Below are positions 1,115 through 6,633 of a DNA stretch of 64,000 nt, in pieces (position 1 is the stretch's first letter; each line of letters begins with the position of its first letter). The translations under genes were made by a program, and so were the position numbers. The notes beneath the pieces are model-generated. The model was given only the letters and a program-made list of their open reading frames with translations, was not told the origin of the DNA and ran no database searches. Origin of the DNA: Escherichia coli (GTDB lineage Bacteria > Pseudomonadota > Gammaproteobacteria > Enterobacterales > Enterobacteriaceae); the NCBI RefSeq assembly GCF_003991155.1, contig NZ_CP031293.1. One strand, written 5' to 3'.

Positions 1115-2770
1115 ATGACTCATCTTCCCCACTGGTGGCAAAACGGCGTTATCTACCAGATTTATCCAAAGAGTTTTCAGGACACCACGGGTAGCGGCAC
1201 CGGCGATTTACGTGGCGTTATCCAGCGCCTGGACTATCTGCATAAACTGGGCGTTGATGCCATCTGGCTAACCCCCTTTTATGTCTCTCCCCAGGTCGAT
1301 AACGGTTACGACGTAGCAAATTATACGGCGATTGATCCCACCTATGGCACGCTGGACGATTTTGACGAACTGGTGACACAGGCAAAATCGCGCGGGATTC
1401 GTATCATTCTCGATATGGTGTTTAACCATACCTCTACCCAACATGCCTGGTTTCGCGAGGCGCTGAACAAAGAAAGCCCTTACCGCCAGTTTTATATCTG
1501 GCGCGATGGCGAACCAGAAACGCCACCGAACAACTGGCGTTCAAAATTTGGCGGTAGTGCGTGGCGCTGGCATGCGGAAAGCGAACAGTACTATTTGCAT
1601 CTCTTTGCACCAGAACAGGCGGATCTCAACTGGGAGAATCCAGCGGTACGCGCAGAGCTGAAAAAAGTCTGTGAGTTCTGGGCCAATCGTGGGGTCGACG
1701 GGTTGCGCCTGGATGTGGTGAATCTGATCTCCAAAGACCCGCGTTTCCCTGATGACCTGGATGGCGACGGGCGTCGCTTCTACACCGACGGGCCACGAGC
1801 ACACGAGTTTTTGCACGAGATGAACCGCGATGTGTTTACGCCACGCGGGTTAATGACCGTAGGTGAAATGTCCTCCACCAGCCTTGAGCATTGCCAGCGA
1901 TACGCGGCTCTGACAGGCAGTGAATTGTCGATGACCTTTAATTTTCATCACCTGAAGGTCGATTATCCCGGTGGTGAAAAATGGACGCTGGCTAAACCTG
2001 ACTTTGTGGCTTTGAAAACATTGTTCCGCCACTGGCAACAAGGAATGCACAACGTGGCATGGAATGCCTTGTTCTGGTGTAACCACGATCAGCCGCGCAT
2101 TGTTTCTCGCTTTGGTGATGAAGGTGAATACCGCGTGCCTGCGGCAAAAATGCTGGCGATGGTGCTGCATGGCATGCAGGGAACGCCGTATATCTACCAG
2201 GGCGAAGAGATTGGCATGACCAACCCGCATTTCACGCGCATTACTGACTATCGCGACGTGGAGAGCCTCAATATGTTTGCCGAGCTGCGCAACGATGGGC
2301 GTGATGCCGACGAATTATTGGCAATCCTCGCCAGTAAATCCCGTGACAACAGTCGCACCCCCATGCAATGGAGCAACGGCGATAATGCCGGGTTTACGGC
2401 TGGCGAACCGTGGATTGGCCTGGGCGATAACTATCAGGAAATCAACGTAGAAGCAGCGCTGGCCGATGAGTCCTCGGTGTTTTACACCTACCAAAAGTTA
2501 ATCGCACTGCGTAAGCAAGAAGCCGTCCTGACATGGGGCGATTACCAGGATCTGCTGCCAAACAGCCCTGTATTGTGGTGCTATCGCCGTGAGTGGAAGG
2601 GGCAAACCTTGCTGGTCATTGCCAACCTTAGCCGTGAGACCCAACCCTGGCAGCCAGGGAAAATGCGCGGCAACTGGCAGCTTGTGATGCATAACTACGA
2701 AGAAGCCTCACCACAACCCTGTGCCATGACTTTACGGCCTTTTGAGGCTGTCTGGTGGTTACAGAAGTAA
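1115..2770 (+). CDS. treC: Trehalose-6-phosphate hydrolase (551 aa)
   Basis: Translation from MTHLPHWWQNGVIYQIYPKSF matches remembered TreC N-terminus; GH13 alpha-amylase-family motifs; ATG at 1115 gives 551 aa. Confidence 0.95.
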   Translation: MTHLPHWWQNGVIYQIYPKSFQDTTGSGTGDLRGVIQRLDYLHKLGVDAIWLTPFYVSPQVDNGYDVANYTAIDPTYGTLDDFDELVTQAKSRGIRIILDMVFNHTSTQHAWFREALNKESPYRQFYIWRDGEPETPPNNWRSKFGGSAWRWHAESEQYYLHLFAPEQADLNWENPAVRAELKKVCEFWANRGVDGLRLDVVNLISKDPRFPDDLDGDGRRFYTDGPRAHEFLHEMNRDVFTPRGLMTVGEMSSTSLEHCQRYAALTGSELSMTFNFHHLKVDYPGGEKWTLAKPDFVALKTLFRHWQQGMHNVAWNALFWCNHDQPRIVSRFGDEGEYRVPAAKMLAMVLHGMQGTPYIYQGEEIGMTNPHFTRITDYRDVESLNMFAELRNDGRDADELLAILASKSRDNSRTPMQWSNGDNAGFTAGEPWIGLGDNYQEINVEAALADESSVFYTYQKLIALRKQEAVLTWGDYQDLLPNSPVLWCYRREWKGQTLLVIANLSRETQPWQPGKMRGNWQLVMHNYEEASPQPCAMTLRPFEAVWWLQK

Positions 2771-2781
2771 ATCTTCGCTAA

Positions 2782-2813
2782 GCCCCGGTAATGCCTGTCA
2801 TTCCGGGGTTTTG
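2782..2813 (+). terminator. Rho-independent terminator candidate after treC (CCCCGG...CCGGGG then TTTTG)
   Basis: GC stem with T-run directly after treC stop. Confidence 0.6.
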
Positions 2814-2914
2814 CCTGTCAGCATGTTGTTTTTGTTGATTTTATAATCAAAAAATTCATTAAAAAATTTACATATCGCTGTAGCGCCCGTCATCCGTACG
2901 CTCTGCTTTTTACT

Positions 2915-2928
2915 TTGAGCTACATCAA
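2915..2928. promoter_or_regulatory. FNR-type site TTGAG-N4-ATCAA upstream of nrdD
   Basis: One mismatch to FNR consensus TTGAT-N4-ATCAA; nrdDG is known to be FNR-activated. Confidence 0.5.
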
Positions 2929-2956
2929 AAAAAGTTCAAACATCCTTGATGCAAAG

Positions 2957-3002
2957 CACTATATATAGACTTTAAAATGCGTCCCAACCCAATATGTTGT
3001 AT
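2957..3002. promoter_or_regulatory. Tandem NrdR-box candidates (CACTATATATAG core and CAATATGTTGTAT), centres about 31 bp apart
   Basis: AT-rich palindromic boxes with about 3-helical-turn spacing typical of NrdR operators in nrd promoters. Confidence 0.5.
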
Positions 3003-3163
3003 TAATCGACTATAATTGCTACTACAGCTCCCCACGAAAAAGGTGCGGCGTTGTGGATAAGCGGATGGCGATTGCGGAAAGCACCGGAAAACGAAACGAA
3101 AAAACCGGAAAACGCCTTTCCCAATTTCTGTGGATAACCTGTTCTTAAAAATATGGAGCGATC

Positions 3164-5302
3164 ATGACACCGCATGTGATGAAACGAGACGGCTGCAAAG
3201 TGCCGTTTAAATCAGAGCGCATCAAAGAAGCGATTCTGCGTGCAGCTAAAGCAGCGGAAGTCGATGATGCCGATTATTGCGCCACTGTTGCTGCGGTTGT
3301 CAGCGAGCAGATGCAGGGCCGCAACCAGGTGGATATCAATGAGATCCAGACCGCAGTTGAAAACCAGCTGATGTCGGGGCCATACAAACAACTGGCTCGT
3401 GCCTACATCGAGTACCGTCACGATCGCGACATTGAACGTGAAAAACGCGGTCGCCTGAACCAGGAGATCCGTGGTCTGGTCGAGCAGACCAACTCCTCGT
3501 TACTCAACGAAAACGCCAACAAAGACAGCAAGGTGATTCCAACCCAGCGCGACCTGCTGGCCGGGATCGTGGCTAAACACTATGCACGCCAGCACCTGCT
3601 GCCGCGTGACGTGGTGCAGGCACATGAGCGTGGCGATATTCACTATCACGATCTCGATTACTCACCGTTCTTCCCGATGTTCAACTGCATGTTGATCGAC
3701 CTGAAAGGCATGCTGACCCAGGGCTTTAAAATGGGGAACGCCGAGATTGAACCGCCGAAGTCGATCTCTACGGCAACCGCGGTAACTGCGCAGATTATTG
3801 CTCAGGTCGCCAGCCATATTTATGGCGGCACCACCATTAACCGTATCGATGAAGTGCTGGCACCGTTTGTCACCGCCAGCTACAACAAACATCGCAAGAC
3901 CGCAGAAGAGTGGAACATCCCGGACGCCGAAGGCTACGCTAACTCTCGTACCATCAAAGAGTGCTACGATGCCTTCCAGTCGCTGGAGTACGAAGTAAAC
4001 ACCCTGCATACCGCCAACGGTCAAACGCCGTTTGTAACCTTTGGTTTTGGTCTGGGCACCAGCTGGGAATCGCGCCTGATTCAGGAATCGATCCTGCGTA
4101 ACCGTATCGCAGGCCTCGGTAAAAACCGTAAAACTGCGGTGTTCCCGAAACTGGTGTTTGCGATTCGCGATGGCCTGAACCATAAAAAAGGCGATCCGAA
4201 CTACGACATCAAACAGCTGGCGCTGGAGTGCGCAAGCAAGCGCATGTATCCGGATATCCTGAACTACGATCAGGTAGTGAAAGTCACCGGTTCGTTTAAA
4301 ACCCCGATGGGCTGCCGCAGCTTCCTCGGCGTGTGGGAAAATGAAAACGGCGAGCAGATCCACGATGGTCGTAACAACCTCGGCGTGATCAGCCTGAACC
4401 TGCCGCGTATTGCTCTGGAGGCAAAAGGCGATGAAGCCACCTTCTGGAAGCTGCTGGATGAACGTCTGGTGCTGGCACGTAAGGCGCTGATGACCCGTAT
4501 CGCTCGTCTCGAAGGCGTGAAAGCGCGCGTAGCCCCGATCCTCTATATGGAAGGTGCTTGTGGCGTGCGTCTGAATGCTGACGATGATGTTTCTGAAATC
4601 TTCAAAAACGGTCGTGCGTCTATTTCGCTGGGTTACATCGGCATCCACGAAACCATTAACGCGCTGTTTGGCGGCGAGCATGTGTATGACAACGAGCAGC
4701 TGCGCGCGAAAGGTATCGCCATTGTTGAACGTCTGCGTCAGGCGGTGGATCAGTGGAAAGAAGAAACGGGTTACGGTTTTAGCCTTTACAGCACGCCAAG
4801 TGAAAACCTGTGCGACCGCTTCTGCCGTCTCGATACCGCTGAGTTTGGCGTGGTGCCGGGCGTGACTGATAAAGGTTACTACACCAACAGTTTCCACCTC
4901 GATGTGGAGAAGAAGGTGAACCCGTACGACAAGATCGACTTTGAAGCGCCTTACCCGCCGCTGGCGAACGGTGGTTTCATTTGCTACGGCGAATATCCAA
5001 ACATTCAGCACAACCTGAAGGCGCTGGAAGATGTCTGGGATTACAGCTATCAGCATGTACCGTATTACGGCACCAATACGCCGATTGATGAGTGTTACGA
5101 GTGTGGTTTTACCGGTGAGTTTGAGTGCACCAGTAAAGGCTTCACCTGCCCGAAATGTGGTAACCATGACGCCTCCCGTGTGTCGGTGACTCGCCGCGTG
5201 TGCGGATATTTAGGTAGCCCGGATGCGCGTCCGTTTAACGCTGGTAAGCAGGAAGAAGTTAAGCGCCGCGTTAAACATTTGGGGAATGGGCAGATAGGTT
5301 AA
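3164..5302 (+). CDS. nrdD: Anaerobic ribonucleoside-triphosphate reductase (class III), 712 aa
   Basis: Translation MTPHVMKRDGCKVPFKSERIKEAI... matches NrdD; C-terminal glycyl-radical region and Cys-rich zinc site present. Confidence 0.97.
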   Translation: MTPHVMKRDGCKVPFKSERIKEAILRAAKAAEVDDADYCATVAAVVSEQMQGRNQVDINEIQTAVENQLMSGPYKQLARAYIEYRHDRDIEREKRGRLNQEIRGLVEQTNSSLLNENANKDSKVIPTQRDLLAGIVAKHYARQHLLPRDVVQAHERGDIHYHDLDYSPFFPMFNCMLIDLKGMLTQGFKMGNAEIEPPKSISTATAVTAQIIAQVASHIYGGTTINRIDEVLAPFVTASYNKHRKTAEEWNIPDAEGYANSRTIKECYDAFQSLEYEVNTLHTANGQTPFVTFGFGLGTSWESRLIQESILRNRIAGLGKNRKTAVFPKLVFAIRDGLNHKKGDPNYDIKQLALECASKRMYPDILNYDQVVKVTGSFKTPMGCRSFLGVWENENGEQIHDGRNNLGVISLNLPRIALEAKGDEATFWKLLDERLVLARKALMTRIARLEGVKARVAPILYMEGACGVRLNADDDVSEIFKNGRASISLGYIGIHETINALFGGEHVYDNEQLRAKGIAIVERLRQAVDQWKEETGYGFSLYSTPSENLCDRFCRLDTAEFGVVPGVTDKGYYTNSFHLDVEKKVNPYDKIDFEAPYPPLANGGFICYGEYPNIQHNLKALEDVWDYSYQHVPYYGTNTPIDECYECGFTGEFECTSKGFTCPKCGNHDASRVSVTRRVCGYLGSPDARPFNAGKQEEVKRRVKHLGNGQIG

Positions 5303-5486: not shown

Positions 5487-5951
5487 ATGAACTTTCATCA
5501 GTACTATCCTGTCGACATCGTCAACGGCCCCGGCACTCGCTGCACCCTGTTTGTCTCCGGGTGTGTTCATGAATGCCCCGGTTGCTATAACAAAAGCACA
5601 TGGCGGGTAAATTCCGGTCAGCCATTTACCAAAGCAATGGAAGACCAGATCATTAACGATCTGAATGACACTCGTATCAAACGCCAGGGGATTTCCCTCT
5701 CCGGCGGCGATCCGCTGCATCCGCAAAACGTGCCGGATATTCTGAAACTGGTACAACGCATCCGCGCCGAGTGTCCGGGTAAAGACATCTGGGTGTGGAC
5801 AGGCTATAAACTCGACGAACTCAACGCTGCGCAAATGCAGGTTGTTGATTTGATTAACGTGCTGGTCGACGGCAAATTTATGCAGGATCTAAAAGACCCT
5901 TCCCTGATCTGGCGCGGCAGCAGCAATCAGGTGGTGCATCATTTACGTTAG
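5487..5951 (+). CDS. nrdG: Anaerobic ribonucleotide reductase activating protein (radical SAM), 154 aa
   Basis: Translation MNFHQYYPVDIVNGPGTRCTLFVSGCVHECPGCYN with Cys cluster; follows nrdD. Confidence 0.95.
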   Translation: MNFHQYYPVDIVNGPGTRCTLFVSGCVHECPGCYNKSTWRVNSGQPFTKAMEDQIINDLNDTRIKRQGISLSGGDPLHPQNVPDILKLVQRIRAECPGKDIWVWTGYKLDELNAAQMQVVDLINVLVDGKFMQDLKDPSLIWRGSSNQVVHHLR

Positions 5952-6242
5952 TCACTCATCCAGCCGTTTTGTCGCGTCTTCATAAACGGCTGAGTTTTCT
6001 CTCTTACCAATAGCTATCACCAACACGAGTAACTCTTTATCATTGACGGAATAGACCAGGCGATATCCCAGTGTGCGCAGCTTAATTTTGTAGCAGTCCG
6101 GTAAATCCCGCAGTTTAGCCGATGGATTGCGCGGCCTTTTCAGCACATCCTCAAGCTTTTTTTTAAATTGTTCCCGGACTGTCACGCCCAGTTTTTGCCA
6201 CTCTTTCAGCGCCCGCGGATCAAACGCCAGCTCATAGTTCAT
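5952..6242 (-). CDS. RelE/ParE-family type II toxin (mRNA interferase), about 96 aa
   Basis: Translation from MNYELAFDPRALKEWQKLG...LPDCYKIKLR..GYRLVY...GKRENSAVY closely parallels remembered K-12 RelE; start chosen by alignment to RelE (longer ORF start at 6320 rejected). Confidence 0.8.
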   Translation of the reverse strand: MNYELAFDPRALKEWQKLGVTVREQFKKKLEDVLKRPRNPSAKLRDLPDCYKIKLRTLGYRLVYSVNDKELLVLVIAIGKRENSAVYEDATKRLDE

Positions 6243-6474
6243 CCAGTCGGACCTTAATGGCCTCTTGTGGGTTGGCCAGTCGTTCCCTGACAGTGCGTAA
6301 CAAGGCTTCTTCACTATCACTGACAGTGAGCGTTTTTACCGGCATTCGTCCATTTTCCGCAACGTACTGAAACAGCAGCCGCACTGCTTCAGTAGGCGTA
6401 ATATTTAATTTTTCCAGCACCGCATAAGCCTCATTTTTCAGTTTGTCATCCAGGCGGACGTTAAGTGTGGCCAT
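6232..6474 (-). CDS. RelB/DinJ-family antitoxin (ribbon-helix-helix), 80 aa
   Basis: Translation MATLNVRLDDKLKNEAYAVLEKLNITPTEAVRLL...RLDEL parallels K-12 RelB; 3' end overlaps toxin start by 11 nt (typical coupling). Confidence 0.8.
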   Translation of the reverse strand: MATLNVRLDDKLKNEAYAVLEKLNITPTEAVRLLFQYVAENGRMPVKTLTVSDSEEALLRTVRERLANPQEAIKVRLDEL

Positions 6475-6497
6475 TATGCCTCCGGTAATTATGAAAA

Positions 6498-6533
6498 GTG
6501 TAATGCATTATAGCATTACATATGCATTACATT
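6498..6533. promoter_or_regulatory. Repeated palindromic motifs (TGTAATGCATTA / GCATTACA / TGCATTACATT) upstream of the antitoxin gene; candidate autoregulatory operator
   Basis: Read directly; TAATGCATTA is a perfect palindrome and TGCATTACA-like half-sites repeat three times. Confidence 0.5.
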
Positions 6534-6633
6534 CATTTCTGGAAAACGCCTCGCAAAAATGAGGACGACACGCAGGAATATGCCGTGGTGAAGATAGATA
6601 TTGCGGTGATTTTACGAAGGGAGAAGAAAGCGT

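Follow-up and report, generated by a model that had tools for sequence, protein, structure and literature searches.

Double DnaA boxes, in which a perfect TTATCCACA 9-mer is accompanied by a weaker box 2 bp away, are occupied in vivo by the replication initiator DnaA at Escherichia coli loci such as purH, polA, nrdA, mioC and nrdD (PMC11317965). The nrdD site lies in the 5' leader of nrdDG, which encodes the anaerobic ribonucleotide reductase and its activating enzyme, and this leader is the subject of the present work. It was analyzed as part of a 64,000-nucleotide stretch of E. coli DNA (contig NZ_CP031293.1, assembly GCF_003991155.1; hereafter the window, to whose first letter all positions refer). 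PMC11317965 covers only the proximal pair of boxes at nrdD; a second perfect box, a conserved spacing and a hairpin between the boxes are not discussed there.

Four further systems are close enough to merit comparison. Like nrdD, nrdAB is a NrdR-controlled ribonucleotide reductase operon with high-affinity DnaA boxes, and it is repressed by DnaA-ATP (PMC8203912). The nrdAB boxes, however, are situated at the promoter or upstream of it, where they affect the binding of RNA polymerase, an arrangement absent from nrdD, the boxes of which are in the transcribed leader near the ribosome-binding site. An initial annotation, made from the sequence alone, had invoked nrdAB as precedent; the analogy holds inasmuch as both reductase operons carry DnaA sites, but is loose with respect to their position. 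As reported by Schaefer & Messer 1988 and 1989 and in a 2024 paper from the Kasho group, DnaA that sits downstream of a promoter at the asnC terminator, which precedes mioC, and apparently also at datA box 2, halts or attenuates RNA polymerase next to a terminator or attenuator hairpin. The orientation of the mioC box relative to transcription is opposite to that at nrdD, and for nrdD such a block is inferred. In the DnaA "riboswitch" of the his operon (Yao et al. 2023, PMC10989985), box-like sequences flank leader stem-loops and DnaA-dependent attenuation has been proposed. The his boxes have two mismatches each and none is found among the 16 regions detected by chromatin immunoprecipitation and sequencing (ChIP-seq), whereas the nrdD boxes are perfect and DNA-bound; RNA binding by DnaA is a hypothesis. 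Finally, in the oriC arrays perfect boxes (R1 and R4) anchor weaker sites at an 11-bp period, and the 77 bp that separate the nrdD boxes equal 7 x 11. Compared to oriC, phasing at nrdD is weak (mean 3.3-3.9/9 matches) and rests on some three conserved motifs, which make up the hairpin arm as well; the leader has neither a DNA unwinding element nor a replication function, and no IHF site was identified.

We read the region as an nrdDG control region with a DnaA module in its leader, and favor, with moderate confidence, a role in which bound DnaA lowers expression by obstructing elongating RNA polymerase. That DnaA and nrdD are linked is already known: the link was predicted in 1997 and 2007, observed by ChIP-seq in 2024 and has been cited since. 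New here, and undiscussed in the literature we found, are the conservation of both boxes, their fixed spacing and the intervening hairpin, which is terminator-like in some families.

DnaA boxes and DnaA occupancy in the nrdD leader

The mRNA-sense strand reads TGTGGATAA twice in the leader (Table 1), as the initial annotation had reported in proposing two perfect DnaA boxes of the same orientation, and the window has no other match on either strand. By chance 0.38 are expected, and at least two copies occur anywhere in 4 of 100 shuffles; arithmetic from these figures gives a chance of roughly 5e-4 for two copies within 77 bp in one leader. Both boxes are exact copies of the high-affinity (R1/R4 type) 9-mer TTATCCACA. 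The proximal one is part of a double DnaA box, TTAAGAACA-gg-TTATCCACA, which matches the consensus at 6 + 9 of 18 positions and is the only double box in the window to score at least 15/18 (0.1 expected). The distal one has no such partner: the 9-mers located 2-3 bp away match the consensus at 1-4 of 9 positions, and with a cross-species mean match of 2.84/9 at offset +11 it is a single box in the Enterobacteriaceae. Both boxes are positioned downstream of the NrdR operator and of either candidate -10 hexamer (2975-2980 and 3012-3017). The distal box would lie some 65 bp, and the proximal one some 140 bp, downstream of the predicted transcription start, within a transcribed leader of about 175 nt, and the double box ends 6 bp before the nrdD Shine-Dalgarno sequence.

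DnaA sites upstream of nrdD were predicted by Messer & Weigel 1997 and by Torrents et al. 2007, and were undemonstrated then (per PMC11317965). Using ChIP-seq in MG1655, Stringer, Fitzgerald & Wade (Microbiology 2024; PMC11317965) found 16 bound regions, among which a peak upstream of nrdD with a coverage 62-fold over control (Table 1 of that paper); the corresponding values for nrdA, mioC and dnaA are 14, 25 and 5. The published nrdD double box, tTTAAGAACAggTTATCCACAg, is the reverse complement of 3128-3149, the double box itself being 3129-3148. The authors consider nrdD and nrdG "likely regulated" by DnaA; their mutational work concerns the purH site, and the supplement of the paper contains nothing on nrdD. 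Later papers count nrdD in the DnaA regulon (PMC12371093; bioRxiv 10.64898/2026.05.06.723188). Absence of DnaA from the locus in ChIP data, which the initial annotation had named as refuting its proposal, is therefore not what is seen. Of the replication-coupled control suggested there, DnaA binding stands; an effect of the boxes on nrdDG expression is putative, and the idea is not new.

The published bound-region centre, 4462739, maps to position 3085, between the two boxes, when read in version 3 coordinates, the only reading in which the listed box falls within 200 bp. The distal box is 29 bp away from this centre and the proximal double box 53.5 bp, while the midpoint between the two perfect boxes is only about 9.5 bp off. 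For calibration, purH and polA, which give the two strongest simple peaks, have their centres 12 and 1 bp away from the respective double boxes. The peak centre hints at occupancy of both nrdD boxes, at a ChIP resolution that does not separate them.

Conservation of the boxes and of the spacer between them

We compared the nrdD start regions of 80 species-representative Enterobacterales genomes, examining 450 bp 5' of each start codon. Of the 56 species representing the Enterobacteriaceae, 52 have both boxes in the E. coli orientation, with Escherichia, Salmonella, Citrobacter, Enterobacter, Kluyvera, Kosakonia, Buttiauxella, Cedecea, Shimwellia and Siccibacter among the genera. Each box is invariant in 51 of the 52, two species each differing by a single base in one of the boxes. 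Measured from start to start, the boxes are 77 bp apart in 30 species and 78 bp apart in 18, the remaining four having 75, 76 or 79 bp, while the approximately 68 bp between the boxes are strongly divergent. Apart from the Shine-Dalgarno sequence and the start codon, the only invariant columns in an alignment of 51 Enterobacteriaceae leaders are those of the two boxes and of a CC 3' of the proximal one; the weak partner box is at least 90% conserved at its TGTT end (the CC-TGTT part).

The module is lost or degraded in the other four of the 56 Enterobacteriaceae. In Pseudescherichia vulneris and Escherichia sp. ESNIH1 the distal box and the whole spacer are deleted, and one degenerate proximal box (CGTGGATAA or GTGCAGAAC) is left right after the promoter region, which makes these loci natural "mutants" of the module. 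SCPM-O-B-8794, labelled E. coli, and 3 of 5425 E. coli genomes have a divergent leader (60-80% identity over 3040-3166) that is without the ACCGGAAAACG repeat discussed below but has retained the two boxes at a distance of 78 bp; such genomes probably represent cryptic lineages of Escherichia.

Outside the Enterobacteriaceae, in the Yersiniaceae, Pectobacteriaceae and Hafniaceae as well as in Edwardsiella, the arrangement changes. Yersinia, Serratia, Pectobacterium, Dickeya, Brenneria, Hafnia and Edwardsiella have two perfect boxes, but here the distal box is in inverted orientation, at a distance of 55-57 bp from the proximal TGTGGATAA. The inverted box reads TTATCCACA, is usually followed by N3-TCATCCACA to give a double box, and directly abuts NrdR box 2 (..CTATATATAGTAG|TTATCCACA). 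Being inverted repeats, the two boxes of such Yersinia-type leaders could pair in the leader RNA as an 8-bp stem enclosing an inner hairpin. That the 9 bp are kept while the strand flips points to a DNA site, recognized by a DNA-binding protein, rather than to an RNA signal. In all sampled families of the Enterobacterales, 29-86 bp separate the proximal box from the start codon, and the box has the same sense orientation in 71/71 loci that carry it. At the level of sequence, this comparison shows that the distal perfect box belongs to the same DnaA module as the proximal double box and that the box-hairpin-box layout is under strong purifying selection.

In E. coli the spacer holds a direct repeat. 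The initial annotation had given it as a 10-mer with coordinates one base off; the repeat is real, comprises the 11-mer ACCGGAAAACG at 3083-3093 and 3104-3114, and extends to a 17-mer of 88% identity with a 21-bp period. It does not constitute a regulatory element in its own right: the CCGGAAAACG repeat is confined to E. coli and E. albertii and replaced elsewhere, every other genus having an unrelated sequence of the same length. Judged by this distribution, the ACCGGAAAACG repeat is a lineage-specific spacer filler and no separate operator, with chance or a lineage-specific duplication as the best reading of its origin. A leader peptide (ATG 3065 to TAA 3148, 27 aa, in which the repeat period encodes TGKR twice) was considered and rejected, as it occurs only in E. 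coli and E. albertii; the 27-codon open reading frame (ORF) shows several non-synonymous differences, and most genera have no ORF there.

What the spacers appear to share is a hairpin. In E. coli it consists of a lower stem (GATTG, 3070-3074, with CAATT, 3122-3126), a middle stem (GGAAAG, 3076-3081, with CTTTCC, 3116-3121) and an apical stem (CCGG, 3084-3087, with CCGG, 3105-3108), the last formed by the two CCGG cores of the repeat. In minimum free energy (MFE) folds of almost every species a purine arm, GGGAAG, about +24 from the distal box, pairs with a pyrimidine arm, CTTCCC, 8-13 nt before the proximal box, and the spacer has a mean z of -0.91 relative to dinucleotide shuffles. RNAalifold on 14 close relatives returned a weak structure. 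A covariance model (CM) built from it and applied to 45 species places pairs in 84% of cells, compared to 43-55% when slid, with compensatory changes in 12 of 13 pairs and 0 of 500 shuffles reaching the observed values, the 45-species alignment being itself fitted to the structure. In an alignment-free test anchored on the boxes, 4.10 of 6 pairs form, compared to 3.62 for arms paired across species (0/2000 permutations). Taken together, the evidence for the spacer hairpin is moderate, and leans in part on model fitting. The Yersinia-type spacer has a shorter, G+C-rich hairpin (79% of cells paired versus 29-50% slid; compensatory changes in 3 of 7 pairs), which in Brenneria and Pectobacterium runs with a T5 tract into the proximal box and was flagged as terminator-like.

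A search of Rfam 15 over 2600-3400, on either strand, gave no match at E <= 1. A CsrA-type GGA-rich leader or a previously described attenuator was rejected as well: no supporting literature was found, and the GGA motifs are unconserved outside the boxes and the hairpin arm. Box-like 9-mers of the same orientation between the perfect boxes give weak maxima near +22, +33 and +44/45, counted from the distal box, and none at +55 and +66. An 11-bp phased array of weak boxes is suggestive on these grounds, and inseparable from the hairpin arm.

Promoter, NrdR operator and surrounding sequence

The region 2700-3300 is 100% identical to E. coli chromosomes, in the annotation of which it spans the 3' end of treC, the intergenic region and the beginning of nrdD. 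Between 2941 and the start codon of nrdD (3164) there is no difference from K-12 MG1655, and 3040-3166 has at least 99% identity in 4903 of 5425 complete E. coli genomes. The features of the region are collected in Table 1.

Table 1. Features of the nrdDG control region and operon (window positions; n/10 counts are matches to TTGAT-N4-ATCAA)
Feature	Position	Strand	Basis or remark
Upstream FNR site (FNR-2 type), TTGAG-CTAC-ATCAA	2915-2928		9/10 match
Promoter-proximal FNR site (FNR-1 type), TTGAT-GCAA-AGCAC	2947-2960		8/10 match
NrdR box 1, GCACTATATATAGACT	2956-2971		inside NrdR-bound 57-bp probe; conserved
Probable -10 hexamer TAAAAT, FNR-dependent nrdD promoter	2975-2980	+	predicted from geometry
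NrdR box 2, ACCCAATATGTTGTAT	2987-3002		same probe; separated from box 1 by a 15-bp linker
Distal perfect DnaA box, TTATCCACA on - strand (TGTGGATAA in mRNA sense)	3052-3060	-	exact 9-mer; no partner 2-3 bp away
Spacer hairpin (moderate evidence)	3070-3126	+	MFE folds; CM-fitted alignment; anchored alignment-free test
Direct repeat copy 1, 11-mer ACCGGAAAACG	3083-3093	+	0.02 expected
Direct repeat copy 2, 11-mer ACCGGAAAACG	3104-3114	+	21 bp from copy 1
Proximal perfect DnaA box	3129-3137	-	exact 9-mer; strong half of published double DnaA box
Weak partner DnaA box, TGTTCTTAA (TTAAGAACA on - strand)	3140-3148	-	6/9 matches; 2-bp spacer
nrdD Shine-Dalgarno GGAG	3155-3158	+	sequence; alignment columns invariant or nearly so
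nrdD, anaerobic ribonucleoside-triphosphate reductase	3164-5302	+	ORF and RefSeq annotation
nrdG, activating enzyme, second gene of the operon	5487-5951	+	ORF and annotation

Activation of nrdDG by FNR via two sites is cited in PMC2892513 and in other literature, and two sites 32 bp apart, both conserved, are present here. The upstream one, which the initial annotation had recognized in agreement with that literature, is kept as TTGNN-N4-(A/G)TCAA across the Enterobacteriaceae; the promoter-proximal one, absent from that annotation, is conserved as TTGATGCAAATCAC in Citrobacter and Salmonella. In the Salmonella nrdDG promoter an FNR site overlaps NrdR box 1 (PMC2892513), and the E. coli site at 2947-2960 shows the same overlap by a few bases. 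Likewise, the NrdR-box candidates of the initial annotation are confirmed as two 16-bp boxes with a 15-bp linker, overlapping the promoter: E. coli NrdR with ATP and dATP binds a 57-bp nrdDG probe in vitro with a dissociation constant of about 160 nM (PMC12176259), and this probe is, letter for letter, window 2952-3008, with the linker as the paper describes.

With the -10 hexamer of Table 1, transcription is predicted to start near 2987, which would put the centre of the FNR-1 type site (2953.5) at about -33.5. Boston and Atlung reportedly placed the FNR sites at -33.5 and about -64.5 in 2003. A simple sigma-70 scan found no + strand promoter match, as expected of an activator-dependent promoter. 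A perfect TATAAT at 3012-3017, between NrdR box 2 and the distal DnaA box, has no recognizable -35 hexamer. Other genera show partial conservation, with TACAAT or TATTAT in its place, and the hexamer could belong to a secondary promoter.

Several observations concern the surroundings. A GATC (Dam site) at 3160-3163, directly 5' of the nrdD ATG, stands in a near-invariant GTGATCATG context in the Enterobacteriaceae, and could be merely start-codon context. Directly after the treC stop codon (2770), a hairpin GCTAAGCCCCGG...CCGGGGTTTTGC at 2777-2814 is probably the treBC terminator; a simple terminator scan did not flag it. Just past it, at 2834-2850, lies a palindrome, TTGAT-TTTATA-ATCAA, which with its N6 spacing is not FNR-like; MG1655 reads TTGATTTTTCAACCAGCAAA at this site, so that the palindrome is variable within E. 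coli. A RelE-family toxin and a RelB/DinJ antitoxin are annotated directly 3' of nrdG on the opposite strand in a 100%-identical RefSeq record (6253-6601 in that record), corresponding to about 5952-6242 onward on the - strand of the window, whose ORF list has a - strand ORF at 5952-6320. When E. coli genomes were searched with 2700-3300, 3 of 5427 matching places were on plasmid-classed records, which is unexpected for the chromosomal treC-nrdD region.

DnaA at the leader and its possible effect on nrdDG expression

It is established that transcription starts from an FNR-activated promoter, which the two-box NrdR operator overlaps. In the mechanism we favor, DnaA at the leader boxes would roadblock or attenuate the elongating RNA polymerase, with less nrdDG expression as a result; the spacer hairpin probably helps pausing or release. 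Anaerobic deoxynucleoside triphosphate synthesis would in this way be tied to the level of DnaA or of its ATP form, in parallel to the dATP/ATP sensor NrdR and the oxygen sensor FNR. An elongation block is the most plausible mode of action because RNA polymerase would meet the boxes only after initiation, their 3' limit being 6 bp short of the Shine-Dalgarno sequence. Published proteomics fit a repressive sign of DnaA on nrdD: NrdD protein is up when DARS2 is deleted, as well as in strains whose DnaA-ATP fraction is lower (PMC12371093), and NrdD and NrdG are up 3.6- to 8-fold at very low DnaAcos levels (bioRxiv 10.64898/2026.05.06.723188).

A number of points weigh against this reading. NrdD and NrdG also rise on DnaAcos induction (bioRxiv 10.64898/2026.05.06.723188). 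Replication stress and NrdR confound the proteomic changes, and an effect of mutations in either box on nrdDG expression is hypothetical. Schaefer and Messer reportedly observed in 1989 that DnaA roadblocking is orientation-dependent. The mioC sense strand reads TTNTCCACA, opposite to the nrdD boxes, and the nrdD orientation may be the less effective one. As for the hairpin, RNAalifold on a plain MAFFT alignment of all 51 leaders finds no structure, the E. coli leader fold is no more stable than shuffles (z = -0.68), and the + strand of the E. coli leader holds no terminator-like site. With respect to occupancy, the peak-centre argument is calibrated on two loci, weaker peaks being 27-200 bp off their boxes; 13 of 32 genomic consensus boxes are bound, and under the double-box rule a distal single box is expected to be a poor binder (PMC11317965); and the ChIP experiment used aerobic LB cultures, in which the FNR-dependent promoter is nearly silent.

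An extension of the roadblock reading, which we put forward tentatively and hold to be possible rather than probable, takes "DnaA box - fixed-length hairpin - DnaA box" as a DnaA-gated transcription attenuator conserved across Enterobacterales. DnaA, possibly in its ATP form and spreading from the distal anchor to the proximal double box, would stall RNA polymerase at the hairpin, so that the anaerobic reductase would be throttled at high initiator activity and released when this activity falls. In a more radical version, DnaA might recognize the leader RNA itself, or the box:box RNA duplex of Yersinia-type leaders.

Other explanations of the module have to be weighed against an elongation block. 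The boxes might mainly serve as a chromosomal titration or reservoir site for DnaA, comparable to the numerous high-affinity boxes by which free DnaA is buffered, with little or no effect on nrdDG expression. The nrdD ChIP signal does exceed those of the regulatory targets nrdA, mioC and dnaA, chromosomal DnaA titration has experimental support (PMC12371093), and an expression effect of the boxes is hypothetical. We nevertheless consider this unlikely: a pure titration site has no need to stay with the nrdD leader in every Enterobacterales family sampled, nor does it require a fixed box-box distance or a spacer hairpin, NrdD levels shift with the DnaA-ATP fraction (PMC12371093; bioRxiv 10.64898/2026.05.06.723188), and only 4 DnaA-regulon genes, nrdD not being one of them, are in the box-rich origin-proximal region (PMC12371093). 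That the two 9-mers and the repeat are together functionless products of chance, we put at next to nothing, although for the repeat by itself chance stays among the best readings, as stated above. At least two TGTGGATAA copies do arise somewhere in those 4 of the 100 shuffled windows; for the boxes chance is refuted by their joint presence 77 bp apart in one leader, their invariance as blocks across 51 species and the measured DnaA occupancy (PMC11317965).

Two further alternatives accept a regulatory role and differ in the level at which it would be exerted. The functional unit could be the leader RNA, the UGUGGAUAA sequences and the hairpin together constituting "rDnaA boxes" or a site for another RNA-binding factor that affects stability or translation. 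Covariation in the spacer hairpin, the constant sense orientation of the proximal box in 71 loci and the 8-bp RNA stem that the Yersinia-type inverted boxes would form all point this way, as does the proposal (Yao et al. 2023, PMC10989985) of a DnaA action on rDnaA boxes to either side of attenuator stem-loops. With the distal box inverted between families, however, it is the DNA site that is conserved and not the RNA sequence, all positions of the 9-mers match the DNA consensus, and ChIP shows DNA occupancy; moreover, Yao et al. saw DnaA-RNA association only in vivo and not in vitro (PMC10989985), the leader belongs to no Rfam family, and no literature tying CsrA or attenuation to it was found. 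An RNA-level function is, in our estimation, improbable. DnaA at the leader could also act on initiation, by looping to the promoter or by cooperating or competing with NrdR, FNR or H-NS, with a variant in which it activates at low and represses at high occupancy as at nrdAB, where, according to a review (PMC8203912), the level and nucleotide form of DnaA decide whether it activates or represses. The distal double box abutting NrdR box 2 in Yersinia-type loci suggests an ancestral promoter site and makes action on initiation plausible for that layout, and the spacings of 77-78 and 55-57 bp share a fractional helical phase of about 0.3-0.4 turn, which fits a geometric constraint at the DNA level. 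In E. coli, by contrast, the boxes are far downstream of the predicted start, at the distances given above, and no site for a bending protein was identified in between, and we regard action on initiation as a doubtful candidate too.

Returning to the elongation block, leader boxes, a second perfect box, a fixed spacing and a hairpin together render the model of DnaA-gated attenuation testable. With DnaA bound at nrdD, E. coli has both its reductases, the aerobic and the anaerobic one, wired to the replication initiator, a point already made in the literature. The distal perfect box is partnerless and yet conserved as strictly as the bound double box. If true, the conditional DnaA roadblock at nrdDG would put to a useful test the rule that DnaA binds only double boxes, and would provide a clear case from nature in which the initiator controls elongation.

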